Shown: positions 3,201 through 21,494, numbered from the stretch's first letter. The stretch is DNA of 46,408 nucleotides from a virus (IMGVR_UViG_2740892219_000006), one strand, 5' to 3'. The notes: generated from the letters alone by a model not told the origin. A program made the numbers and translations.

Positions 3201-3208
3201 GATTGATC

Positions 3209-3556
3209 ATGTGGACGGTACTTTTTAGCCAGCGATTTGACGACTGGCTAAATGAGCAAGAAGACGCTCTTCAGGAAAAGGTTTTGGCTGATTTGAAAAA
3301 TCTACAGGTTTACGGACCTGAGTTACCCAGGCCATATGCCGATACCGTAAAAGGTTCTCGGTACAAAAATATGAAAGAGCTTCGCGTTCAGTTTTCTGGC
3401 CGTCCGATAAGAGCCTTTTATGCGTTCGATCCGATTCGCCGGGCCATCGTTCTTTGTGCAGGAGACAAAAGTAACGATAAGCGGTTTTATAAAAAACTGG
3501 TGCGTATAGCTGAGGATGAGTTTGCAGCACATCTGAACACACTGGAGAGCAAGTAA
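3209..3556 (+). CDS. RelE/ParE-superfamily toxin (HigB/Gp49-like)
   Basis: 115-aa protein with the pattern recalled for HigB-like toxins (RVQFSGRPIRAFYAFD...AIVLCAGDKSNDKRFYKK); toxin-first order followed by an overlapping XRE antitoxin. Confidence 0.75.
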   Translation: MWTVLFSQRFDDWLNEQEDALQEKVLADLKNLQVYGPELPRPYADTVKGSRYKNMKELRVQFSGRPIRAFYAFDPIRRAIVLCAGDKSNDKRFYKKLVRIAEDEFAAHLNTLESK

Positions 3557-3855
3557 TGAGAACATTAGATGAGGTGATTGCCAGCCGTTCACCGGAAAGC
3601 CAGGCGCGAATTAAAGAAATGGCAGATGAGATGATTCTTGAGGTCGGCTTGCAGATGATGCGTGAAGAACTCCAGTTATCACAAAAACAGGTTGCTGAAG
3701 CGATGGGTATAAGCCAGCCAGCAGTAACAAAGCTGGAGCAGCGCGGAAATGATTTAAAGCTGGCGACGTTAAAGCGTTACGTTGAAGCTATGGGAGGCAA
3801 ATTAAGCCTGGATGTTGAGCTTCCCACAGGAAAGCGAGTAGCGTTCCATGTCTAA
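3556..3855 (+). CDS. XRE-family HTH antitoxin (HigA-like)
   Basis: 99-aa protein with HTH LSQKQVAEAMGISQPAVTKLE; start overlaps the toxin stop (TAATG). Confidence 0.75.
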   Translation: MRTLDEVIASRSPESQARIKEMADEMILEVGLQMMREELQLSQKQVAEAMGISQPAVTKLEQRGNDLKLATLKRYVEAMGGKLSLDVELPTGKRVAFHV

Positions 3856-4173: not shown

Positions 4174-4331
4174 TTGGTACCTCAAATTGTTTAAAATGTG
4201 TTAATTACAAAATTCAGCCGATACCATGTTCAATGGTATAGCATTGCTGAAATGTCTTTTTCAAGACCTTGCCAATAAGCTAAACAAAAATGTTTAATGC
4301 TTCGCCTAAAAAAACACCAGTCACTATTGTT

Positions 4332-4440
4332 TATATAATTATAGATTTATATAAAAAGTGCTTTACGGGTGGAAAAAAATTTCCTAAGGTTATACCCGAA
4401 ACCGAGCGATACCCGCCCTGGTTAAACCGGAGATAACCCG
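4332..4440 (+). promoter_or_regulatory. Conserved promoter/leader/RBS cassette, copy A (includes the AT-rich 22-bp motif)
   Basis: About 109 bp nearly identical to 14027-14134 and 21124-21233: AT-rich motif, TTTACG-N17-TAAGGT promoter-like hexamers, conserved leader and GGAG RBS directly before the ATG. Confidence 0.55.
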
Positions 4441-4821
4441 ATGAGCATGATTAAAATCCGCAAAAACGCTTTCCTTAAAATTCAAACTATCCTGGCTGGT
4501 TCTGTTGGCGTGATTTGCCGTTCTTCTTCAAGCCGCATCGATGACGGCTACGATGATGAGTATCGTGTGTCCTCGTGCGATGAGGCTTTAACCTGGCTGA
4601 AGGAGAATCAGGAACGTGCCCAGGTATATCTGGAAACAGAGAACGGCAATCAGATGCTGCGTATTAGCGGTCGTTATGGATTTGAAACTACATTCATGGC
4701 CTATTTTAATCAGGCTTACTTTGACAAGGAGTTGGCCTGGTACACTGATCGCATGAGCAAAAGCGAGCCAGCCCCGATTACACCGCCGAACAATAAACCA
4801 TTTTTATTCCTCGTTAAGTAA
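4441..4821 (+). CDS. Hypothetical protein (126 aa)
   Basis: ORF directly driven by cassette A; no recognised domain. Confidence 0.5.
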   Translation: MSMIKIRKNAFLKIQTILAGSVGVICRSSSSRIDDGYDDEYRVSSCDEALTWLKENQERAQVYLETENGNQMLRISGRYGFETTFMAYFNQAYFDKELAWYTDRMSKSEPAPITPPNNKPFLFLVK

Positions 4822-5966: not shown

Positions 5967-7112
5967 TTATGGTCTGCTTTTCTGTGCCAGCTTATCAGCA
6001 CATGTTTTTATCAGATCCTGTAGTGTCCTGGCTGGCAGGTTTGCATCCAGAACGCTGAGTATGCTGTTGTGATCAGCCTGGTCGACTACTTTGCCTGTCG
6101 GTGGTAGTAGCTTGAGCTGAGGATTCAGGTTTTCGTCAAAGCTGATAAGTGCTCTGGCGTTTCTGAGCAGATCAAGAAGTAAGGCTGATATCACATTTTC
6201 CTGAGTCATTGCTGGCAGATTTAGCGTCGCTTTGGTTTTCCCTGTTGCCTTGTCAAACTCCTTGATTAGTTCCTTCCTGTAGTTCGGTTCCGTTAATAGC
6301 CGATTATGCTCTGTTGCCGCGCGGATAATCGTTTTTTCCTGGTACAGTCGTTTAGCCAGATCGCGCTCGTACTGTGTTTTTAACACGCTGCTGATAGCGT
6401 TAAAGGCTTCAATGTAGGCCAGCTTGATATCCTTCACGCCTGGGCCGTCGATACTTTCCATGAGCAAGGTAAATCCGTCTTTTGTCATGCGATAGATTGT
6501 TATTTCGCGGTCGCTTCCTTCCAGCGGTCGTTGCTCTTTAAAGAAATGACGTGCCGCAGCCGTGCGAGGAATGCGTAGCGCATCGATGGCCATAACGATG
6601 GAATTGTTTGTGGTGCTGAATGCCTGGGCAACATCGGCTGAGGTTGTGAGTGGCTCGTTGTTGCACACCTTAATGTAAAACATCGGTTTGGCGTTGAGCG
6701 TATCGACAACCTCACGAGCATTGTTTGGCGAGACGGTAACGGTCGCGGCCGTTTGCGCGTTCTGGTTGAAGTAGCAGTCTTCCAGCCGTTCGAACACATC
6801 CCACGCTTGGTTAGTTTCAAGCATTTTGGCGTGACGTGCAGCCCCGCGTTCTGTCCAGAGGATGAGGGAGCGGACTTTAGGTGAAACTGGATTTTGTGAG
6901 TAGTTTAAAGCTACCCGCAATTCTTTAAGGTCATTACCAACAACTTTGAAAAAGTGTTTCCCTTCAACGAAACGTACTTTGTTCTCATGATGATTCTGGC
7001 GAATACGCACCGGCTCAGTGCCGTAAAGCTGTGCCAGTAACTCGGTAGTAATGACAGGGATTTGGTTATGCAGGATAGGCTGTAGGGTGTTAACGGTCGG
7101 AAGCGTTTTCAT
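5967..7112 (-). CDS. Phage antirepressor (ORF6N-type N-terminal domain plus Rha-like domain)
   Basis: 381 aa; N-terminal ELLAQLYGTEPVRIRQNHHENKVRFVEGKHFF is recalled as ORF6N/Ant-like; central region ITIYRMTKDGFTLLMESIDGPG..IKLAYIEAFN is recalled as Rha-like. Confidence 0.7.
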   Translation of the reverse strand: MKTLPTVNTLQPILHNQIPVITTELLAQLYGTEPVRIRQNHHENKVRFVEGKHFFKVVGNDLKELRVALNYSQNPVSPKVRSLILWTERGAARHAKMLETNQAWDVFERLEDCYFNQNAQTAATVTVSPNNAREVVDTLNAKPMFYIKVCNNEPLTTSADVAQAFSTTNNSIVMAIDALRIPRTAAARHFFKEQRPLEGSDREITIYRMTKDGFTLLMESIDGPGVKDIKLAYIEAFNAISSVLKTQYERDLAKRLYQEKTIIRAATEHNRLLTEPNYRKELIKEFDKATGKTKATLNLPAMTQENVISALLLDLLRNARALISFDENLNPQLKLLPPTGKVVDQADHNSILSVLDANLPARTLQDLIKTCADKLAQKSRP

Positions 7113-7300: not shown

Positions 7301-7594
7301 TGTGATATCTCCGATTAAAGGAACTATCACCACCAATGACGCCAATCAATATGGTGGTGAGACGTACAGGGTTGGCGTAACCGGCACAATGACAAACCCG
7401 GCGCGGATTTCTCCGCCCCCGCACGCCCCACCATAATTTGGGTGTAGCAGTGCTTTACGCATAAAAAAACCGCTAACGCGGTATGCGCCATTGTGCAATC
7501 GGGACGCCAATCCCGACCGTAGATTTTGCTACGGCTCGGAAAGTGTCCACCAATGGCGCATTCATGTCAATACGGCGGGATTTTAACAGAGACA

Positions 7595-8442: not shown

Positions 8443-8847
8443 GGACGGTTCTTTCGTGCTGATCGGATTCGCGGTCCTTTCAGCATTACGTTGTTGTATA
8501 AACAACCACGCAAGCACAAGCAGCAAGTTGATTTTACCCAAAAGGTAATAATAGTCCACTATTATGCTTCAAAAAATTGTGGTTCTTGTTGTGTCTGCAA
8601 ACTCACAGATTGTGGGTAGGTTACTGATTTTGTGAAAATAAACTGGTTTTTTCGTTTAATTTATTTCCTATTACTAATCTTAAAATAATCGTAAAATACC
8701 TGTGGACCTTCCCGCCGATTCGCACCCGGGCACCGACTTTAGGGGAGGATTTCCTGTTGCCGTACATGCAAGCACAAGCAGCCGTGCTTGCTCTCGCGTT
8801 GTTTTCGTCGGTGGGGATGCCGTGAAACGGCCTGTAAGGGCCATACA

Positions 8848-8970
8848 ATGAAAAAATACTGTATGTGTATTTTTATCGTTGTTACTGGGGCTTTGTTTAC
8901 GCCACATGGGGAGGGTTGGAAGATTACTGATAACGCTCTGAATGTGACGATAAACATTAGCAGCAAGTAG
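8848..8970 (+). CDS. Possible small hydrophobic peptide (40 aa)
   Basis: MKKYCMCIFIVVTGALFT signal-like N-terminus; immediately followed by a strong terminator; weak RBS. Confidence 0.25.
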   Translation: MKKYCMCIFIVVTGALFTPHGEGWKITDNALNVTINISSK

Positions 8971-8975
8971 CGATT

Positions 8976-8998
8976 AGGCCCCTTCGGGGGCCTTTTTT
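8976..8998 (+). terminator. Rho-independent terminator
   Basis: AGGCCCC-TTCG-GGGGCCT followed by TTTTTT. Confidence 0.7.
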
Positions 8999-9220: not shown

Positions 9221-9469
9221 TTACTTCTGGTTGTATTGAGCCTTAAGTAACTCAAAAGATTTTGTCAGCACTTCTTTCAATGACATATCCATTGAGCTGG
9301 CGAACGTTTTGTACTCGCGTTTAAATTCAGGGTCGACGTTAAACGCCATTTGTGCCCCACCTGATTTGGTTCTGGTTGGCGTTTCAGTCGGGTCGAAAAC
9401 CTGCGGTTGTTCGATCGATGGCGGTACGCCTTTGCTGTTCTTCTTTGGTGGTTTTGATGGTGCGGCCAT
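9221..9469 (-). CDS. ParG-like ribbon-helix-helix centromere-binding protein
   Basis: 82 aa directly downstream of parA; basic, probably disordered N-terminus and an RHH-like C-terminus (MAFNVDPEFKREYKTFA...); AGAGGGG RBS. Confidence 0.55.
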   Translation of the reverse strand: MAAPSKPPKKNSKGVPPSIEQPQVFDPTETPTRTKSGGAQMAFNVDPEFKREYKTFASSMDMSLKEVLTKSFELLKAQYNQK

Positions 9470-9482
9470 GTGTATCCCCTCT

Positions 9483-9512
9483 TATATAAATCTATAAAAC
9501 TATAATTATATA
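9483..9512. repeat. AT-rich 22-bp motif copy (TATATAAATCTATA / TATAATTATATA) between parA and parG
   Basis: Member of the dispersed motif family also found at 4331, 10191, 10265, 14019, 15231, 15281, 19977 and 21116. Confidence 0.5.
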
Positions 9513-10166
9513 TTACGCGGCAGTAGTCAGAGCCTCAAGCTGGTTGATAATCCCCTGAATAACGTCGTCTGCCTTTTTGCGTGGCGCAACGTATGAGCAC
9601 TCAATGAGGCTTAAGCCCTTATCCTGAGCTTTGCTCAGAGCTGGCTTGTGGGGAATGTACTTATCGACAACAAAGTATGGCGTATTAGCCAGGTACTCTT
9701 GGGCTTCAATATAGTCAGCTTCGTTTTCAGCCGCGCCGGAAAACACCATGCAAATTTTCTTGATTGGTACACCCTTTTTAACGATGCCGTGAGCTGTGTT
9801 AACGGTGGTTTCCAGGTCATCGGTAGAGAATCTGGTTGGCAAAATAACCATATCCAGAAATTCAGAGAGCTTCGGTACTGATTCAGATGCGTAGGCACCG
9901 CCATCGACGATAACCAAGTCGTATACTTCTGATTCGATGATTTTCTGGACTTGTGATGGTGTGCCGCACGGCTGCGCCGCGATTGCTGGTTCGATATTGT
10001 TGGCCATTCTGCGTTGTACCCAACGCGTTACCGTTCCGTTAAGCACATCCATATCGATCAGGCATACATTCCAGCCAGCCTTTGCATAAGCAACTGCTAA
10101 AGCACGGGCAATTGTTGATTTGGTTACGCCGCCTTTTCCGTTGAAAATACCTACAGAGATAGTCAT
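9513..10166 (-). CDS. parA: ParA-family partition ATPase (small type Ib ParA/ParF-like)
   Basis: Deviant Walker A GKGGVTKST near the N-terminus; about 217 aa; start placed at ATG 10166 (GGAG RBS). Confidence 0.8.
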   Translation of the reverse strand: MTISVGIFNGKGGVTKSTIARALAVAYAKAGWNVCLIDMDVLNGTVTRWVQRRMANNIEPAIAAQPCGTPSQVQKIIESEVYDLVIVDGGAYASESVPKLSEFLDMVILPTRFSTDDLETTVNTAHGIVKKGVPIKKICMVFSGAAENEADYIEAQEYLANTPYFVVDKYIPHKPALSKAQDKGLSLIECSYVAPRKKADDVIQGIINQLEALTTAA

Positions 10167-10190
10167 TTGTCGAGACTCCATGTGTTTGAT

Positions 10191-10294
10191 TATATAATTC
10201 TATAAATCTATATTTATAGAACGAGGTAAGCATAACCAACTTTTTGGCGGATGAAAAGCGTTTTATATAATTATATAAATCTATAATCATATAA
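10191..10294. repeat. Centromere/operator-like AT-rich iterons upstream of parA
   Basis: Two direct copies of TATATAATT-TATAAATCTATA about 70 bp apart (10191-10220 and 10265-10294) in the parA promoter region. Confidence 0.5.
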
Positions 10295-10691: not shown

Positions 10692-10726
10692 GCGTAGCCT
10701 CTTTTATACTTTTACATGTTGTCAAA

Positions 10727-10741
10727 ACCACAAAATGTGGT
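10727..10741. promoter_or_regulatory. Operator-like palindrome ACCACAAAATGTGGT (followed by a T-run)
   Basis: Perfect ACCAC-N5-GTGGT between the repressor gene and the next gene; could also act as a terminator hairpin. Confidence 0.45.
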
Positions 10742-10783: not shown

Positions 10784-11440
10784 TCATAACCAGTTGACAA
10801 CACTAACTACGCGGCCAAGAACTTTATAACGCTTAAATTCCTCATTATTCAGATGCTTAGTGTTCATTTCAGCATCCCTTTCGGTTGACAGCATAACAGC
10901 ATTGTCACCCGGTATGACTCTACAGTGCCTCAAAACAACCAGGCCATTTCTGTCTTCAAGGGCATAGATCCCCTCATGAATCTCTGTATCGTCTGTATTA
11001 ATCAGGACTTGGGAGCCAGGGGATATTGTTGGTGACATTAACTCATCGTTGCTCTGGAGAACTGACAGAGACGATGGGTTGATGTTCTTGCTTCGTAGAA
11101 TCTCCTGTTCTATCGCCAGCACTGGCTTTTCTCCGGCGTGCGATGCTATGTCATTTTTTATAGCTACAAGCCCAGGAATAACAGGAGCGTTAGTATTCTG
11201 GGGTGGGAACGGGTTATCTGTTAAGCACGCGATATAAGGCGCTGATGCTTTCAGGGCGTGCGCGATTTTCTTGATGGCAGGTATAGATGGTTGTCTTAAT
11301 CCGGCCTCATAGTTCTGCAAGGTGCTTAAGCCTATTCCAGTGACTTGCTGGAGATCTCCGGCAGTCATGCCGGATTGTTTCCGTAGAGTCTGAATGCGCA
11401 GACCTATTTCTTTCTTGATGTTCTCGTCGTTGCTTTTCAT
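10784..11440 (-). CDS. CI-like prophage repressor (N-terminal HTH, C-terminal S24 LexA-type peptidase domain)
   Basis: 218 aa; HTH near the N-terminus (LQQVTGIGLSTLQNYEAG); C-terminal region with lambda CI/LexA-like architecture. Confidence 0.85.
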   Translation of the reverse strand: MKSNDENIKKEIGLRIQTLRKQSGMTAGDLQQVTGIGLSTLQNYEAGLRQPSIPAIKKIAHALKASAPYIACLTDNPFPPQNTNAPVIPGLVAIKNDIASHAGEKPVLAIEQEILRSKNINPSSLSVLQSNDELMSPTISPGSQVLINTDDTEIHEGIYALEDRNGLVVLRHCRVIPGDNAVMLSTERDAEMNTKHLNNEEFKRYKVLGRVVSVVNWL

Positions 11441-11477: not shown

Positions 11478-11595
11478 ACCACATTTAGTGGTTTTCACAT
11501 GGTAAGACGAGAGGTGGACCACAAATAGAAGGTTATTTTTTGTTTTGCTCATTGAAAAACTCACGATATGTGGTTTTAATACCACGTATCGTGGT
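11478..11595. promoter_or_regulatory. Immunity control region: three ACCAC-N5-GTGGT operators with divergent promoters
   Basis: Sites at 11478-11492, 11560-11574 (one mismatch) and 11581-11595; rightward promoter TTGAAA (11552-11557), 17 bp, TTTAAT (11575-11580) overlapped by two operators. Confidence 0.6.
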
Positions 11596-12621: not shown

Positions 12622-12851
12622 GTAGTTATGTTCGCGGTGCTGCGATGCATTGCCAGAATCCCCAATTCTGGCGCTTTCTGACCAGTAAAACAGGGAAGAA
12701 CATTTCAAACAGTTCTGAGGCCTCTGTGATTCTGCGTGAGTTTTGCGGGATCTCATCCCGTAAAGAGCTGGCAAAGAACTACGCGGCCAGAAGCATGTAT
12801 GTCCAGTTAATCAACGAGTTCAACCTCTTTATCAATGGTAAGGGGCGCTGA
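12618..12851 (+). CDS. Hypothetical protein (77 aa)
   Basis: Translationally coupled ORF in the early operon. Confidence 0.4.
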   Translation: MSSYVRGAAMHCQNPQFWRFLTSKTGKNISNSSEASVILREFCGISSRKELAKNYAARSMYVQLINEFNLFINGKGR

Positions 12852-13255
12852 TGAACGGACGTACGCCAACGAAGAAAGAGAAACTTTATATACAAGCGGT
12901 GCTCACTCACGTGGGTTGCATAGCTTGCATTATTGATGGCCGTGAAATTGAGAATCCAGAGCTGTGGACGGAGCTACATCACGATCCTGATTACGGCAGC
13001 GTTGATGAGAATTGCCACTTCCATAGCTTTGGGTTGTGCGCACCACATCATCGCGGTGTTGTGCCTGGTGGTGGGCGCGTGCCTCCGCATATTGCCGTTC
13101 GTCACCCTCCCCTGAGTAATTGTGCTCGCTTTGTTGAGCGTTATGGCACCGATGAATTTTTGTGTGCGCAGACGTGGGAGCTGTTGCCGCAGTCAGTTAA
13201 AGACGAAATTGGGTTTGATCTTAGTCTTGGTGAAGTACCAGGGGATACCAAATGA
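12851..13255 (+). CDS. Ref-like HNH-type nuclease (recombination enhancement function family)
   Basis: GRTPT...GCIAC...LHH...LC..HH pattern recalled from P1 Ref. Confidence 0.5.
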   Translation: MNGRTPTKKEKLYIQAVLTHVGCIACIIDGREIENPELWTELHHDPDYGSVDENCHFHSFGLCAPHHRGVVPGGGRVPPHIAVRHPPLSNCARFVERYGTDEFLCAQTWELLPQSVKDEIGFDLSLGEVPGDTK

Positions 13256-13584
13256 GATATACCGGCTTTCGCAAACCAGCGACCAGGAAAAGCAAATACG
13301 GCAATAAAAAAACGGTTGTCGATGATATCGCTTTTGATAGCAAAAAAGAGGCTGATTACTACTGCGAACTGAAGCTACTGAGAAAAGCTGGCCGCGTTGT
13401 GACGTTTCTTATGCAGGTGCCTTTTCATCTGCCAGGTGGTGTCGTTTATAAACTTGATTTCATGGTGTTTTATGACGATGGGACGATTGATTGTGTCGAC
13501 ACTAAAGGTGTGCGAACAGACGTCTACATCATGAAGAAAAAGCAGGTAGAGGCGCTTTATCCCGTCACGATACGGGAGATCTGA
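13252..13584 (+). CDS. DUF1064-like protein (putative PD-(D/E)XK-type nuclease / resolvase-like)
   Basis: N-terminal KYGNKKTVVDDIAFDSKKEADYY matches the remembered DUF1064 signature. Confidence 0.45.
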   Translation: MRYTGFRKPATRKSKYGNKKTVVDDIAFDSKKEADYYCELKLLRKAGRVVTFLMQVPFHLPGGVVYKLDFMVFYDDGTIDCVDTKGVRTDVYIMKKKQVEALYPVTIREI

Positions 13585-13587
13585 ACA

Positions 13588-13965
13588 GTGAGACGCGATC
13601 TGGATAGCTTGTTTGAGCTATGGGCGCTGTGGGTGCGCAATGGCTGCAACGCCCGTAGCGGTTTCGCGTCGATGTTAGAAATGATGATGGTTACGCGTTG
13701 CCAGTTTACCGGAGGGGGCGGCGCACCAAATGACTCACTGGAAACCAGTATCGAGGGAGCGGTGACGGCCCTCACGGTAGTTGATGAGACTGCGGCGCTG
13801 GTTGTCCGAATTGAATACGGGGCGTGGGAGATTCGGGGCCTCGACATAAATGCACCGCATATTGATAAAGCCCACGCCCTTTCTCTTAGTCTCAGACAGT
13901 ATCGCCGGAAGCTGGCAAAAGCCAGGGCGTATGTTGTCGACTATTTGAAAAAGCGAAGAGAGTGA
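13588..13965 (+). CDS. Possible Q-like antiterminator (small prophage Q-family)
   Basis: 125 aa; LFELWALWVRNG resembles the LERWGAWA motif recalled for a small Q-like family; GTG start. Confidence 0.35.
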   Translation: MRRDLDSLFELWALWVRNGCNARSGFASMLEMMMVTRCQFTGGGGAPNDSLETSIEGAVTALTVVDETAALVVRIEYGAWEIRGLDINAPHIDKAHALSLSLRQYRRKLAKARAYVVDYLKKRRE

Positions 13966-14026
13966 AAGTGTCATTTTGAGCTGTTTTGATAGTGTGTAGA
14001 CATCGGGAACATCGAAAATCTATAAA

Positions 14027-14134
14027 TATATAATTATAGATTTATATAAAAAGTGCTTTACAGGTGGGAAAAAATTTCCTAAGGTTATACCCGAAACCGA
14101 GCGATACCCGCCCTGGTTAAACCGGAGAAATCTG
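14027..14134 (+). promoter_or_regulatory. Conserved promoter/leader/RBS cassette, copy B
   Basis: Near-identical to 4332-4440; ends at ATG 14135. Confidence 0.55.
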
Positions 14135-15202
14135 ATGAATAAACAAGTAATTATTTCTGACTGGATCAACAACCCTAACAGCCTGTTAAGCACTGATACT
14201 GGCTACCTATTACGCCATGTTAATGGTCGTATGGTCAAAAGCGATGAGCACGAAACCTTTTTCTTTGTTGAAGACGATGGGCGCATCTATGAGGATGGTT
14301 ACTCTTATGAAGCCCAAACAGGTTGTATCCCTGCGGAGCTGGTGGACGTAACAGAAGAGCTGCGCAAAGCATGGCTTGAACAGCAGCAGCGCGGAGATGA
14401 TTACGTAAATACCTATCAGGAACGCCAGAACGCGCGTCTTGCCCGATATATTGCTCGTGCAGAAAAAGCCAGAAAAGAAGGAGCGGTAGCGCATAAGCGA
14501 GCGCATGACCTGTTGGATGTGATCCCGTTAGGCCAGCCGATTTTAGTTGACCATTATAGCGCGAAAGGCCATCGCCGCCGTTTGTCTAAAGCTGATGCGT
14601 TATTCAGAAAAGCGTTTGTTGAATGCGAAAGTAAAGCATCACACTACGAGAGCAAAGCCGCAGGTGTTGGTCGTAATGGAATTTCGTCTGATGATCCTGA
14701 TGCGCTATTTAAGTTGCTTCGTAAGCTGCAAGGCTGCATGAAGTCACACGTCAAAATGAAGGCCGCAAATAAGGCCATTCGCAAATACAAAAAAGACCAA
14801 TTACAGCAGCTTTCTGCATTAATCGATCTCAGGTTTACAGAAAGCGAAGCCAAAGAGTTACTGGCCGGAGATTTCTGTGGGTGCATCGGATTCCCTTCAT
14901 ACGCACTGAGCAACAATAACGCCGCAATCAAACGACTACAGAGCCGTATTAAGGAGCTTGAATCGGTCAAGTCTGTAACAGGAGCACAGCGCGAAGAATA
15001 CGACGGCTTTTCTATGGAGATAGATCCAGAGGATAACCGCATCCTGTTTTATTTCCCTGGCAAACCAGAGGCAAACATTCGTTCGCTGCTTAAATCACGC
15101 GCCTTTAAGTGGAGTCCAACCCGTAATGCATGGGTTCGCAAGATTACTCCAAACGCCCTGGCTGATGCCCGATATCTAAAAGAATCGCTATTGAAAGCCT
15201 GA
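14135..15202 (+). CDS. Conserved hypothetical protein (355 aa; possibly DUF3560-like)
   Basis: Long ORF driven by cassette B; the C-terminal half resembles a remembered plasmid/phage DUF3560 pattern, unverified. Confidence 0.55.
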   Translation: MNKQVIISDWINNPNSLLSTDTGYLLRHVNGRMVKSDEHETFFFVEDDGRIYEDGYSYEAQTGCIPAELVDVTEELRKAWLEQQQRGDDYVNTYQERQNARLARYIARAEKARKEGAVAHKRAHDLLDVIPLGQPILVDHYSAKGHRRRLSKADALFRKAFVECESKASHYESKAAGVGRNGISSDDPDALFKLLRKLQGCMKSHVKMKAANKAIRKYKKDQLQQLSALIDLRFTESEAKELLAGDFCGCIGFPSYALSNNNAAIKRLQSRIKELESVKSVTGAQREEYDGFSMEIDPEDNRILFYFPGKPEANIRSLLKSRAFKWSPTRNAWVRKITPNALADARYLKESLLKA

Positions 15203-15212
15203 CAGTAAGCCT

Positions 15213-15310
15213 ACGGCGGGACGTCTCCCCCCGTATATAGAATTATATATTTATATAAATAACGGCGGGACGTCTCCCGCCGTATATAGAATTATATATT
15301 TATATAAATG
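15213..15310. repeat. Tandem duplication (2 x 49 bp) of a GC hairpin fused to the AT-rich motif
   Basis: ACGGCGGGACGTCTCCCGCCG palindrome followed by TATATAGAATTATATATTTATATAAAT, present twice in tandem; first copy has one stem mismatch. Confidence 0.6.
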
Positions 15311-15328
15311 TATAAGGACGCCTCGACA

Positions 15329-15610
15329 ATGAAACGCAAAATTATTAACCCCCAAGATGTGATTAATTTCCTGACCGATCACCCATGTTCAAAAGTGGAC
15401 GTAATCGCGGAGCACATTGGTGTGTCGCAGAACTCTATGCGTTGCAGACTGAGAAGCATGGTTGCCGAAGGACAGATAACAACCAGGAAAATAAATGGTT
15501 GCCTGTACTACTCCGCTAAACCGGAATTGCCATTTGGCATGAATCCTAACTCCATGTTGTTTAACACCTTATTAGCCAAAGTTAAGCCGTTGAGAGGGGC
15601 TGTGGCATGA
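15329..15610 (+). CDS. Small putative DNA-binding protein
   Basis: 93 aa from ATG 15329; segment VDVIAEHIGVSQNSMRCRLRSMVAEGQI resembles a winged-helix/HTH. Confidence 0.4.
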   Translation: MKRKIINPQDVINFLTDHPCSKVDVIAEHIGVSQNSMRCRLRSMVAEGQITTRKINGCLYYSAKPELPFGMNPNSMLFNTLLAKVKPLRGAVA

Positions 15611-15972
15611 GCATCAAAACCCATACCGGAATAATCATTACCAATGATGGTGAGAAAAGAGTGAAGTTGCGTGAAACGCCGACAACCTGGTGTGTTGGTC
15701 CGAAAGAAACATATCGCAAGGAAGATGGCCGTCGTTGTGGGGCACCACTTTCCCGCCGTCGCCTCCTTTTGAGCACGATAAAACCTATCGGGCAGGTTGA
15801 GCAACCAACGACTCCGGTAACGAAGATTTCAGACAATAGTCTGGCAAACCTGATCGCTGATGCGGACAAGGTGCTGGAGCGAAACACCCCCGTTGCAGAT
15901 GAGGAATGGTGGCAGGATTTCCGAGCTGCAATGCTAGAGCTTCAGGAACGTCGTCGGGAGGAGTTGAAGTGA
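15607..15972 (+). CDS. Hypothetical protein (121 aa)
   Basis: ATG overlaps the upstream stop; no recognised domain. Confidence 0.4.
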   Translation: MSIKTHTGIIITNDGEKRVKLRETPTTWCVGPKETYRKEDGRRCGAPLSRRRLLLSTIKPIGQVEQPTTPVTKISDNSLANLIADADKVLERNTPVADEEWWQDFRAAMLELQERRREELK

Positions 15973-15992
15973 GCAAGGTGAAAGAGCGCGGC

Positions 15993-16598
15993 ATGATTTT
16001 TAATGATGAGATGGTCCGAGCCATCCTCGAAGGCAGGAAGACGCAGACTCGTCGACCTGTAAAAAATGTCAGGGCCGATAACTGCCTGGTTATCAGTAAA
16101 CCGACAAAGAAACGCAATGGTGTCTATACCCACGTTATGGATGCACCTGAGCATGGCTTATGCCCGTTCGGTAACGTTGGTGATCGCATATGGGTACGTG
16201 AGACATTCAACGCTTTTTGGCTGGATGACGATGTTATTCAGGAAATCAAAGATGGTGTCTCTCTGGCTTCTGAACTGTGTGATTACAAGGCTGATTACTC
16301 AGATAGTAGCAAGCCATCTGAGGGCTGGACCCCGTCAATTCACATGCCGAGATGGGCATCGCGAATTTTGCTGGAAATTACCGACGTGCGTGTGGAGCGG
16401 CTGCATGACATGAGCGAGGCAGATGCCAAAGCGGAAGGCGCATCTCCGGCAACGTACAAGATTACGCCGCCGGAAGCTGTTTATCGTGTTGGTTTTGGTG
16501 ATATCTGGCGCGGTATTTACGGGCAAGAGAACTGGCTATCTAACCCGTGGGTATGGGTAATTGAGTTTAAACGTATTCAGGGGGCAAACAGTGAGTAA
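15993..16598 (+). CDS. Hypothetical protein, possibly ASCH-like
   Basis: N-terminus MIFNDEMVRAILEGRKTQTRRPV is common in a prophage protein family; start uncertain (alternative GTG 15969/15978). Confidence 0.4.
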   Translation: MIFNDEMVRAILEGRKTQTRRPVKNVRADNCLVISKPTKKRNGVYTHVMDAPEHGLCPFGNVGDRIWVRETFNAFWLDDDVIQEIKDGVSLASELCDYKADYSDSSKPSEGWTPSIHMPRWASRILLEITDVRVERLHDMSEADAKAEGASPATYKITPPEAVYRVGFGDIWRGIYGQENWLSNPWVWVIEFKRIQGANSE

Positions 16599-16848
16599 TT
16601 CCGCACGGCTACAGCTTGGTTTTTCACCGCTATCAAAAACCATCGTGTTGGCCAAAATGCGCGATTTAGGTGACGGAACAAAACGCCGTGTAGGCAATGA
16701 TCGCGGTCGTGATGTAACCAACGAGGCCGCACAACTCGTTTGGCATCTTGTCATGGCAGAAGGCGGTGAAATCAATTGGGAGCTGGATGATGGTTCTCGC
16801 ATGGTGTTAAGGGCAGAAAAGCAGGGGGCAAACGATGAAAAACCGTAA
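16591..16848 (+). CDS. Hypothetical protein
   Basis: GTG start preceded by AGGGGGCAAAC, the same RBS context as the next gene. Confidence 0.35.
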   Translation: MSNSARLQLGFSPLSKTIVLAKMRDLGDGTKRRVGNDRGRDVTNEAAQLVWHLVMAEGGEINWELDDGSRMVLRAEKQGANDEKP

Positions 16849-17029
16849 AGCAAAGATTCTGTTAGTTCGTAGAAACGCTCCTGGCGTCTGGCAGTGGGTG
16901 AGACTCAGCAACCGACGGATGGGGTTAATGAAACATTACGGGATGATGGATTGTGGTTTTTGCAAAAAGCCCAGCGCGGCGCAAAACCGCTGGAAAAACC
17001 ACTGTTATCTGCGCACTAAAGGAGAGTGA
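16835..17029 (+). CDS. Small Cys-containing hypothetical protein (64 aa)
   Basis: AGGGGGCAAAC RBS before ATG 16835. Confidence 0.4.
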   Translation: MKNRKAKILLVRRNAPGVWQWVRLSNRRMGLMKHYGMMDCGFCKKPSAAQNRWKNHCYLRTKGE

Positions 17030-19855: not shown

Positions 19856-19979
19856 TACCGCCTGTGATTGGGTAAAGCCCATCTACCTGACTGATCACGA
19901 CATCGATGTTATGGACCGCCAGACAAAGAAAGATATTCTGGCTCATAACAGGGCATGGGAAATCAACTGCCGAAAGTAA
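19770..19979 (+). CDS. Rz1-like outer-membrane lipoprotein spanin, overlapping Rz in another frame
   Basis: Signal peptide with lipobox LIASC; AGAGGTGGGG RBS; starts inside the Rz reading frame. Confidence 0.55.
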   Translation: MYSRVLTIWLMTMLIASCGSRGSVPVVVDTACDWVKPIYLTDHDIDVMDRQTKKDILAHNRAWEINCRK

Positions 19980-20013
19980 TATATATTTCTATAATTATAT
20001 AAATATATAGTTA
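19977..20013. repeat. AT-rich 22-bp motif copy
   Basis: TCTATAATTATATAAATATATA; same family as the par-region iterons. Confidence 0.45.
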
Positions 20014-20148
20014 CAACATTCTATGCGCTTTTCTCATGAGCGCACGCATCAACCATGTTTGTCTGATATGCCGCCGCGCCCAAAAATCCTGAATTTATTG
20101 GCTGGGATTTTCGTGCGCGGCGCCACACCAGACAAACAGATCAAATAT

Positions 20149-20224
20149 GGCCCCTTAGCTCAGTGGTTAGAGCAGGCGACTCATAATCGCACGGTCATCG
20201 GTTCAAATCCGGTAGGGGCCACCA
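20149..20224 (+). tRNA. tRNA with CAU anticodon (Met or lysidine-dependent Ile2 type), 3-prime CCA encoded
   Basis: Manually folded cloverleaf: 7-bp acceptor GGCCCCT/AGGGGCC, D-stem GCTC/GAGC, anticodon loop CTCATAA, T-stem ATCGG/CCGGT with TTCAAAT loop; the 5-prime half resembles the E. coli Ile2 tRNA from memory. Confidence 0.85.
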
Positions 20225-20532
20225 ATTCACTCTCACACATAAAGATAAGCGCGGTGGAGTTACTTCCTTCGTGCTCATCTTTATGCGTGCCTGGTGCGCA
20301 TTTCGGGCGAACGTGGGGCTAAGTTACAGGCAGGGCCTGTTATCCGCAAAGGGGTAAAAGCTGGAGCGGCGCGGAACTGTAGCCGTGTTACCAAAACAGC
20401 GTTGTCGGGCGATATCCGGCACACAACAGGCAAGGGCATTAATCAGTCTGGTTAGTGCCCTTTTCGTTGTGTTTGCTGTAGAGCTGGCCAGCGTTATGAC
20501 TGCCGGAGATAAGCGCCGGAGGCACAACTAAC

Positions 20533-21120: not shown

Positions 21121-21123
21121 AAT

Positions 21124-21233
21124 TATATAATTATAGATTTATATAAAAAGTGCTTTGCAGGTGGGAAAAAATTTCCTATAGTGGCAACCAGAAACCGAGC
21201 GATAGTCGCCCTGGTTAAACCGGAGATAACCCG
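21124..21233 (+). promoter_or_regulatory. Conserved promoter/leader/RBS cassette, copy C
   Basis: TTTGCA (21154-21159), 17 bp, TATAGT (21177-21182); the leader differs from copies A/B by clustered substitutions creating AACCAG...CTGGTT complementarity. Confidence 0.55.
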
Positions 21234-21494
21234 ATGAAAAGTAGCGATATGGTAGAAGCTCTCGAAATTAACGCAGCAATCGATACTATGATTACTGACC
21301 GTCAGGCAATTGCTGATCGCCAAAAACACCACGTTGATGTACTACAAGAAACTTGGGATCTTGTGCGCTTGGGGCATCAGTATAAAGATGCTGGGAAGGA
21401 CTGGTATCGCTGGGCGAAAGCTACAGCAATTAGACTGTGGGAAAGCACGCAATCTCGGGCAGAAGAGCTGAAAGATAACGGGGTGAGTCTATGA
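21234..21494 (+). CDS. Hypothetical protein (86 aa)
   Basis: Driven by cassette C; no recognised domain. Confidence 0.45.
   Translation: MKSSDMVEALEINAAIDTMITDRQAIADRQKHHVDVLQETWDLVRLGHQYKDAGKDWYRWAKATAIRLWESTQSRAEELKDNGVSL

Follow-up and report, generated by a model that had tools for sequence, protein, structure and literature searches.

The window analysed here, the 46,408-nucleotide (nt) viral sequence IMGVR_UViG_2740892219_000006, belongs to a phage-plasmid and carries, at positions 14135–15202 on the plus strand, a gene for a 355-amino-acid (aa) protein of the DUF3560 family. We tentatively read this protein as a factor that binds DNA and is expressed early to serve establishment or anti-defence, being a polyvalent-protein module in solo form, and regard this reading as plausible if somewhat short of probable. 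The open reading frame (ORF), which begins with ATG and has a Shine–Dalgarno GGAG (14124–14127) 7 nt 5' of it, agrees exactly with an initial annotation made from the sequence alone and is certainly a genuine gene. Its product matched PHROG 6744 end to end (E = 2.7e-232) and fell within a 94%-identical cluster of 733 member sequences bearing the RefSeq name ‘DUF3560 domain-containing protein [Escherichia coli]’. Using Pfam, we found that aa 94–216 (14414–14782) cover positions 2–124 of the 124 in PF12083 (DUF3560), with 107.1 bits against a gathering cutoff of 27.2 bits (E = 8.3e-31). The annotation had suggested a DUF3560-like pattern in the C-terminal region; the family was right and the position was not, the Pfam domain being central, though conservation does reach residue 355.

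An exhaustive profile search for the family recovered 8,976 clusters at 50% identity, of which 3,007 had E ≤ 1e-30. The common form is a protein of ~265 aa equivalent to aa 94–355 of the window protein, and the Pfam model spans less than half of this conserved unit. Plasmids are its main setting: the core was present in 442 of 72,556 plasmid records (232 of them conjugative) versus 12 of 50,697 phage records (the present phage-plasmid accounting for three), making it 25-fold commoner in plasmid than in phage records. N-terminal to the core, other family members carry an ArdC-N-like domain (proteins of ~430 aa), a full ArdC (ArdC-N plus MPTase) with or without DUF2958 (1,100–1,700 aa), ddrB-ParB, a DNA polymerase III beta domain, LPD25 with or without LPD29 or a methyltransferase, or LPD30 together with LPD29. 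These partners are the signature modules of polyvalent proteins from conjugative elements and phages, whose domains, solo or fused, are probably facilitators of the early invasion phase (Iyer et al. 2017, PMC5512222).

Published surveys place the family in the same setting. DUF3560/YdbA is leading-region family #28 of Samuel et al. (Nature 2024, Supplementary file 3), with 1,913 members, a false discovery rate p value given as 0, a median position at the 12th ORF from oriT, strand coded 1 and the label ‘Uncharacterized’. On pO157, a family gene lies in the leading region between an antirestriction gene and ssb and shows 5-fold induction by ciprofloxacin (PMC11125564), while Klebsiella chromosomal CRISPR spacers target the DUF3560/YdbA gene, which is present on ~1,000 GenBank plasmids (PMC6965323). 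Our literature search found no paper assigning a function to DUF3560.

The neighbourhoods of individual homologues were also examined. In PromA-type plasmids the order is RepA, H-NS, a fused ArdC-N–DUF3560 protein, KfrA, SSB, KorA/IncC/KorB and relaxase, and in an integrated element of Eoetvoesiella it is kleA-like, DUF192, RadC and ArdC followed by DUF3560. On a Pseudomonas plasmid the gene lies near AcrE1, AcrF3 and an SOS-response peptidase, and in a P2-like prophage it adjoins the integrase. Full-length relatives that also share the N-terminal domain of the window protein stand beside an ArdA-type antirestriction gene, an LPD29 protein and a TrwC relaxase in Xenorhabdus, and beside ParA/KorB, LPD29 and KorA in Dickeya. 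The LPD29 protein, 254–265 aa long, recurs near full-length DUF3560 genes in these two genera (L012:9238–10035, L013:11508–12272) and may be a functional partner of DUF3560; it did not appear among those proteins of the window to which Pfam was applied. A small downstream ORF (53–60 aa) at four distant loci was considered as a conserved partner and rejected, its sequences being unrelated except between two PromA-type plasmids.

Some of these associations would also suit a replication, recombination or DNA-processing accessory that binds element DNA and recruits or modulates the host beta-clamp, SSB or RecA for the first round of replication or recombination rather than to counter defence. A DNA polymerase III beta domain is joined to DUF3560 in one family member, and ssb, a putative primase gene (repB), kfrA and radC are frequent neighbours. 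In the window, the gene follows a Ref-like RecA-dependent nuclease (12851–13255) and a DUF1064 protein named Holliday junction resolvase by PHROGs (13252–13584), with one unknown 125-aa ORF (13588–13965) between these and the DUF3560 gene; the initial annotation had accurately described this placement behind early nuclease genes. The GQPIL motif of the family presumably bears a loose likeness to clamp-binding peptides. On the other side, the window replicon gene repA (736–1746) is 12 kb away, many elements have complete replication modules of their own without a DUF3560 gene, and the ArdC and methyltransferase fusions suit counter-defence better. The ‘primase’ label found in PHROG and GenBank is also unsupported. 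It comes from a gene of Faecalibacterium phage FP_Toutatis (MG711466, L018:3138–4058) whose product shares only the C-terminal half of the core (aa 173–352; 30% identity, E = 1e-19), a segment that occurs separately elsewhere too, for example in an Enterococcus YodL-domain protein. Pfam identified no primase catalytic domain (Toprim/DnaG, AEP or PriCT) in the window protein or the FP_Toutatis protein, and we rejected a primase identity; the FP_Toutatis annotation, on which the PHROG 19458 label is based, is probably wrong. Overall, we consider a role as such an accessory possible, if unlikely.

The AlphaFold2 model of the whole protein (mean predicted local distance difference test score 92; predicted template modelling score, pTM, 0.82) has three parts. 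The first, aa ~10–90, consists of five strands and two helices and belongs to the acidic, beta-rich N-terminal domain (aa 1–93; 14135–14413), which is missing from the common ~265-aa form and restricted to an Enterobacterales subfamily. With an isoelectric point (pI) of 4.4 and a net charge of −10, this domain is as acidic as had been proposed. It gave no Pfam match even at E ≤ 10, and a word-indexed search for homologues in other architectures returned only fragments of the same protein. The family profile had aligned it with the ArdC-N-like regions of the ~430-aa fusions; a cryptic ArdC-N was nevertheless rejected, with an hhalign probability of 0.5%, whereas the positive control, in which N-regions of the fusions were aligned with true ArdC-N, gave 88%.

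The second part of the model comprises three long helices (aa 93–128, 143–177 and 190–217) separated by two conserved loops, and short helices continue from there to aa 279. The loops hold two invariant motifs, IPLGQPILVDHYSAKGHR (aa 130–147) and GRNGISSDDPDALFKL (aa 179–194). The initial annotation had described a basic, coiled-coil-like centre; the region is indeed basic (aa 94–216, pI 10.2, net charge +14), but its three long helices are modelled as an intramolecular bundle. In the third part (aa 283–355), a beta-beta-beta-alpha-beta-beta-alpha domain packs after helix 255–279. Together these form a C-terminal alpha-beta-beta-beta-alpha-beta-beta-alpha module (aa ~255–355; 14897–15199) that resembles the ‘double-wing’ fold of the C-terminal domain of T4 MotA and has conserved basic and aromatic residues at R302, F307, K310, R316, K320, F324, W326, W333 and R335. 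The MotA C-terminal domain was its only specific structural neighbour, reproducibly and with a clear gap to the next match; Foldseek against the PDB gave nothing below E = 0.1, and neither the whole profile nor the C-module profile had relatives in the PDB by sequence.

This resemblance raises the alternative that the protein is a MotA-like transcription factor, its double-wing module reading promoter DNA while the helical part contacts RNA polymerase or sigma-70, thereby redirecting early element or host transcription. MotA being the sole specific neighbour, and the protein being basic overall (pI 9.1), would fit such a role. The alignment, however, takes in ~80 residues at 7–9% identity (~83 of the 209 residues of full-length MotA, 6k4y_M), and nothing in the protein is like the sigma-binding N-terminal domain of MotA. 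The fusion partners of the family are DNA-protection and DNA-modification domains rather than transcription domains, and no AsiA-like partner turned up, no search having been aimed at AsiA-like proteins. We regard this alternative as very improbable.

Conservation was measured across 266 family representatives. Polar residues conserved in at least 90% of them are Q134, H140, S142, R147, D186, D187, K193, N212, N260, R271, R302 and R335. The window protein has all the family motifs, including those beyond the Pfam model: GQPIL..H.S, SSDDPD, MKxxN, NNNA and NRxxFxFxGKP...FKWSP...W.R. It departs from the consensus of motif 1, GQPILvGHHSE, reading GQPILVDHYSA (aa 139–143 at 14549–14563). The variants of these five residues are GHHSE (227 of the 266), GHYSE (18), DHYSA (11), DHYSY (3) and NHYSA (1), and they are strictly correlated: D139 was never combined with E143, nor G139 with A143. 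Apart from a near-identical E. coli trio (the window protein, P0001 and P0002), DHYSA members are 39–60% identical to one another, and each has a closer GHHSE relative at 53–80% identity. The variants are most simply explained by a required carboxylate that moved repeatedly from position 143 to position 139 after H141 became tyrosine. Such a swap argues for a specific catalytic or ligand-binding site beside the invariant H140 and S142, and suggests that the window protein is functional and not degenerate.

Taken further, these residues could mean that the protein is an enzyme. The His/Ser/carboxylate set of motif 1 and the Asp-Asp pair of motif 2 would then form the catalytic centre of a hydrolase or transferase whose substrate is DNA, a nucleotide or a host protein. 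The number of invariant polar residues is unusually high, the repeated shift of an acidic residue between 143 and 139 is typical of residues required for function, and some database entries name family members ‘hydrolase’. Against these stand the three-helix bundle, an atypical catalytic fold, the lack of any enzyme family match by sequence or structure, and the location of the two motifs at opposite ends of the bundle, as judged from the helix topology of the model only. The names ‘HD hydrolase’ and ‘hydrolase’ of YdbA entries were rejected as unsupported; neither an HD motif nor an HD domain is present, and these names appear unfounded. A catalytic role thus seems improbable to us.

The 169-nt gap 5' of the gene holds a unit that recurs almost verbatim before two other start codons in the window. 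This cassette of ~110 nt, comprising operator, promoter and leader, exists in three copies ending at ATGs 4441, 14135 and 21234, which bears out the earlier proposal of a dedicated promoter cassette; mean identity is 90% with the Klebsiella aerogenes orthologue included, and in K. aerogenes the cassette is conserved although the DUF3560 protein there is only 69% identical. Cassette A (4331–4440, plus strand) precedes a gene for a 126-aa protein of unknown function (4441–4821; matching phrog_8090), and cassette C (21123–21233, plus strand) one for an 86-aa protein of unknown function (21234–21494) with no family match. These two genes and the DUF3560 gene make up a small putative regulon. In ~62 related plasmids of ~48 kb, the 95-nt promoter and leader part was found three times per record; among the records listed, the sole match outside this group was a partial copy (34 of 95 nt) on one further E. 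coli plasmid.

In cassette B, the copy before the DUF3560 gene, an AT-rich operator-like element with 8-bp periodicity (14018–14049), whose TTATATAA-like boxes start at 14026 and 14042, lies directly 5' of the −35 hexamer of a sigma-70-like promoter (14057–14085, plus strand). This promoter, read from the sequence and kept in all three cassettes and the K. aerogenes orthologue, has −35 TTTACA (14057–14062), a 17-nt spacer and −10 TAAGGT (14080–14085); a consensus promoter scan missed it, as TAAGGT agrees with the consensus at only three of six positions, the −10 being TATAGT or TATGGT in the other copies, including that of K. aerogenes. Within the spacer, a palindrome GGAAA-AAA-TTTCC (14067–14079), of the general form GGAAA-N3-TTTCC, has counterparts at the corresponding place in cassettes A and C and may act as a second operator. 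The conserved 5' leader of ~45 nt (14092–14134, plus strand), near-identical in all copies, contains a small hairpin (14095–14118) and the GGAG; we estimate that transcription starts at about 14092–14094. The hairpin prediction is weak (−9.9 kcal/mol) and short of significance (z = −1.65); with z = −1.15 to −1.85 and no Rfam match there, a structured cis-regulatory RNA was rejected as unsupported. Judged from the sequence, the DUF3560 gene is its own transcription unit, served by a sigma-70-type cassette, and its distant homologues in Dickeya and Xenorhabdus have sigma-70-like promoters of their own too.

The AT-rich boxes of cassette B are common to the par operon and four other intergenic regions. 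Allowing ≤3 mismatches, the 21-mer core TATAATTATAGATTTATATAA occurs 13 times in the window versus 0.01 expected, always between genes, at 4334–4354, 9482–9510, 10190–10291, 14018–14049, 15238–15307, 19979–20015 and 21126–21146. These sites include both flanks of parA (9482–9510 and 10190–10291), the DUF3560 promoter, two positions before the gene at 15308, and cassettes A and C, and the boxes hold the same syntenic positions in the K. aerogenes relative. A candidate binder is the 82-aa protein encoded downstream of parA (9221–9469, minus strand), which has a basic disordered N-terminal tail followed by a strand-helix-helix pattern like the ribbon-helix-helix (RHH) proteins ParG and omega; it had neither a Pfam match nor a PDB sequence match. 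Because this protein is ~93% identical in the K. aerogenes relative, the boxes there are syntenic and the pattern is ParG/omega-like, we infer that the boxes may constitute a combined centromere and operator system. The MarR-like protein encoded at 15308–15610 would be a less favoured binder: compared by eye, its window and K. aerogenes versions share only ~50% identity, whereas both the boxes and the ParG-like protein stay near-invariant.

Two of the boxes belong to a 49-nt tandem duplication (15213–15309; repeat family D4, with 98% identity) situated between the stop codon of the DUF3560 gene and the MarR-like gene. Each unit consists of a GC-rich hairpin (15213–15234 and 15262–15283), carrying ACGGCGGGACGTCTCCCGCCGT, and then an AT box. 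The hairpin is terminator-like on the minus strand only, and the duplication marks the border with the next transcription unit, that of the MarR-like gene at 15308.

Boxes common to the par operon and cassette B would also be expected of a KfrA-type partition or maintenance accessory, a long-helix DNA-binding scaffold working and co-regulated with the ParA/ParG-like system. The neighbours KfrA and IncC/KorB in PromA-type plasmids and ParA/KorB/KorA in Dickeya, together with the long basic helices of the centre, point the same way. AlphaFold2, however, gives a compact intramolecular bundle (pTM as above) rather than an extended coiled coil, the family is also found in integrative prophages and integrative and conjugative elements (ICEs), which need no partition, and the invariant polar loop residues with their carboxylate swap suggest a specific site rather than a scaffold. 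We therefore give little credence to a scaffold role.

Our preferred reading, an early establishment or anti-defence factor, would work as follows. The protein would be a stand-alone DUF3560/YdbA module of the kind deployed by conjugative plasmids, ICEs and some phages early after DNA entry. An element-encoded repressor, most likely the 82-aa ParG/omega-like protein, would act on the AT boxes, so that cassette B fires on entry of the phage-plasmid into a naive cell or on de-repression and is shut off in stable carriage. The product would bind nucleic acid through its MotA-like double-wing module and the basic three-helix bundle, as the fold and the conserved Arg, Lys, Trp and Phe residues suggest. 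A putative functional site made up of Q134, H140, S142, the mobile carboxylate at 139/143, R147 and D186/D187 would then act on DNA or a host partner, protecting or establishing the replicon. Such a role would be anti-restriction or anti-defence in a broad sense, like that of the ArdC effectors often fused to the core, and the acidic N-terminal domain may be a lineage-specific adaptor replacing the ArdC-N single-stranded-DNA-binding domain of other family members.

The initial annotation had seen the locus as typical of anti-defence or host-takeover genes. That view is partly supported: it fits all the contextual evidence, and a confident match to a characterised structural or housekeeping family was looked for and not found; no link to a defence system emerged. 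Several observations weigh against our proposal. General libraries gave no functional match (Pfam, NCBIfam or PHROG) to known anti-defence families such as ArdA, ArdB/KlcA and anti-CRISPR proteins, nor was there an anti-restriction, anti-CRISPR or DNA-mimic family match, and PADLOC defence models gave none at E ≤ 0.01. Neither experiment nor homology links the protein to any defence system or host target. The likeness to MotA, at 7–9% identity, is at the level of the fold and is not proof of DNA binding. The boxes, whose role as repressor sites is putative, could instead be UP elements, promoters or sites of another regulator. No canonical terminator separates the upstream early operon from the gene, so there may be read-through into it from the CI-controlled promoter. 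Finally, because the element has neither a relaxase nor an oriT and its related records were classed as non-mobilizable, the logic of leading regions would carry over to phage injection or plasmid establishment only by analogy.

A more far-reaching proposal is that the DUF3560 core represents a new class of early effector, in which the MotA-like module of a DNA-bound protein would position a hitherto unrecognised active or binding site (Gln-His-Ser, mobile carboxylate and Asp-Asp) against host defence or repair on incoming DNA, and which here would belong to a partition-protein-controlled ‘zygotic induction’ regulon of dispersed AT boxes. We think this rather unlikely as a whole. If true, it would describe an early effector used by thousands of plasmids, ICEs and phage-plasmids.

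The family itself was already catalogued, with a RefSeq name and published enrichment in leading regions, and to a specialist the presence of a DUF3560 gene here is unsurprising. What the present analysis adds is the three-part architecture, the MotA-like C-module, the extent and size of the core, its fusion repertoire, the carboxylate swap and the link between the cassette and the par boxes. DUF3560/YdbA is among the largest uncharacterised gene families of plasmid leading regions, and its function, once known, would help to explain how resistance plasmids, ICEs and phage-plasmids become established in new hosts. The locus offers a compact and tractable version, a 355-aa solo protein in E. 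coli and Yersinia with its own promoter, and its handles are a high-confidence model, a DNA-binding-like C-module, a list of invariant residues and a natural carboxylate swap marking the probable functional site. These make the family a worthwhile and better-defined experimental target. The three-copy cassette and the boxes common to the par operon further suggest a global regulatory circuit of omega/KorB style in a phage-plasmid.

The window carries an IncFII-type RepA (coordinates as above), a small ParA (9513–10181, minus strand), a CI-like repressor (10784–11440, minus strand) and, further right, tail and head genes; the element is therefore a phage-plasmid. An MT-A70 methyltransferase is also encoded, and those window proteins that went through family searches included no relaxase. 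The region 13000–17000 shares 99.6% identity with Yersinia phage vB_YpM_39, whose circular genome of 49 kb carries only genes annotated ‘hypothetical’, and the window is matched by Yersinia phages vB_YpM_39, 41 and 44. Close relatives comprise ~60 plasmids of E. coli, Salmonella and Klebsiella, ~48 kb in size and typed non-mobilizable. An assignment to the pSLy3 group of phage-plasmids was rejected: pSLy3 sits in the SSU5 supercommunity, and nothing ties the window to it.

Other features of the element were observed alongside. Inverted repeats of the ACCAC-N-GTGGT type flank the CI-like repressor gene (10720–10741, 11478–11499 and 11561–11594) and are probably CI/Cro operators, distinct from the AT-rich boxes. 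A P1/P7-like immI layout is present, with a C4 antisense RNA (7350–7438, minus strand, 72 bits) and an isrK RNA (7463–7535, minus strand, 67 bits) upstream of an ORF6N plus Rha anti-repressor gene (5967–7112, minus strand). A full-length, strong match to ryfA RNA (8702–8998, plus strand; 143 bits against a gathering score of 80) is one that we take to be, perhaps, a type I toxin–antitoxin-like maintenance module. A Gp49-family (HigB-like) gene paired with an HTH_3 gene (3203–3556 and 3556–3855, plus strand) looks like a toxin–antitoxin pair. Just after the AT-box cluster at 19979–20015, a tRNA gene (20149–20221, plus strand), annotated as tRNA-Met in the Yersinia phage record, lies inside the mechanically called ORF 20023–20322.

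Set beside known systems, the window protein shares the DUF3560 motifs of aa 94–355 with YdbA of F-like plasmid leading regions, but adds the acidic N-terminal domain, uses the minority DHYSA form of motif 1 and sits on a non-conjugative phage-plasmid. A leading-region gene is one within the first ~30 ORFs after oriT, co-oriented with entry, on a conjugative or mobilizable plasmid; distant homologues fit this definition, whereas the gene studied here does not. The DUF3560 core is one of the modules that polyvalent proteins (Iyer et al. 2017) combine with ArdC-N, MPTase, ddrB-ParB, LPD25/29/30 and methyltransferase domains, and the same early role would be expected of it. Polyvalent proteins, however, unite 2–15 distinct conflict-related domains; homologues of 650–1,700 aa qualify, while the window protein is solo, with DUF3560 and an orphan N-terminal domain only. 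Compared with ArdC, it lacks both ArdC-N (PF08401) and the zincin MPTase-PolyVal (PF18818), and it also has no methylase or ParB domain. Its C-module is like that of T4 MotA (PDB 1KAF, 5JLT and 6K4Y) in structure only, with no relation at sequence level, and the remainder is unrelated to the MotA N-terminal domain. As for the regulatory circuit, omega of pSM19035, ParG of TP228 and KorB of RK2 are partition proteins with a second role as global repressors, exerted at dispersed arrays of repeats. The TTATATAA boxes, with their 8-bp periodicity, presumably differ from the repeats of those systems. Like them, the window combines a small ParA and an 82-aa protein of RHH-like pattern with short periodic repeats before par and several operons, among them that of the DUF3560 gene.

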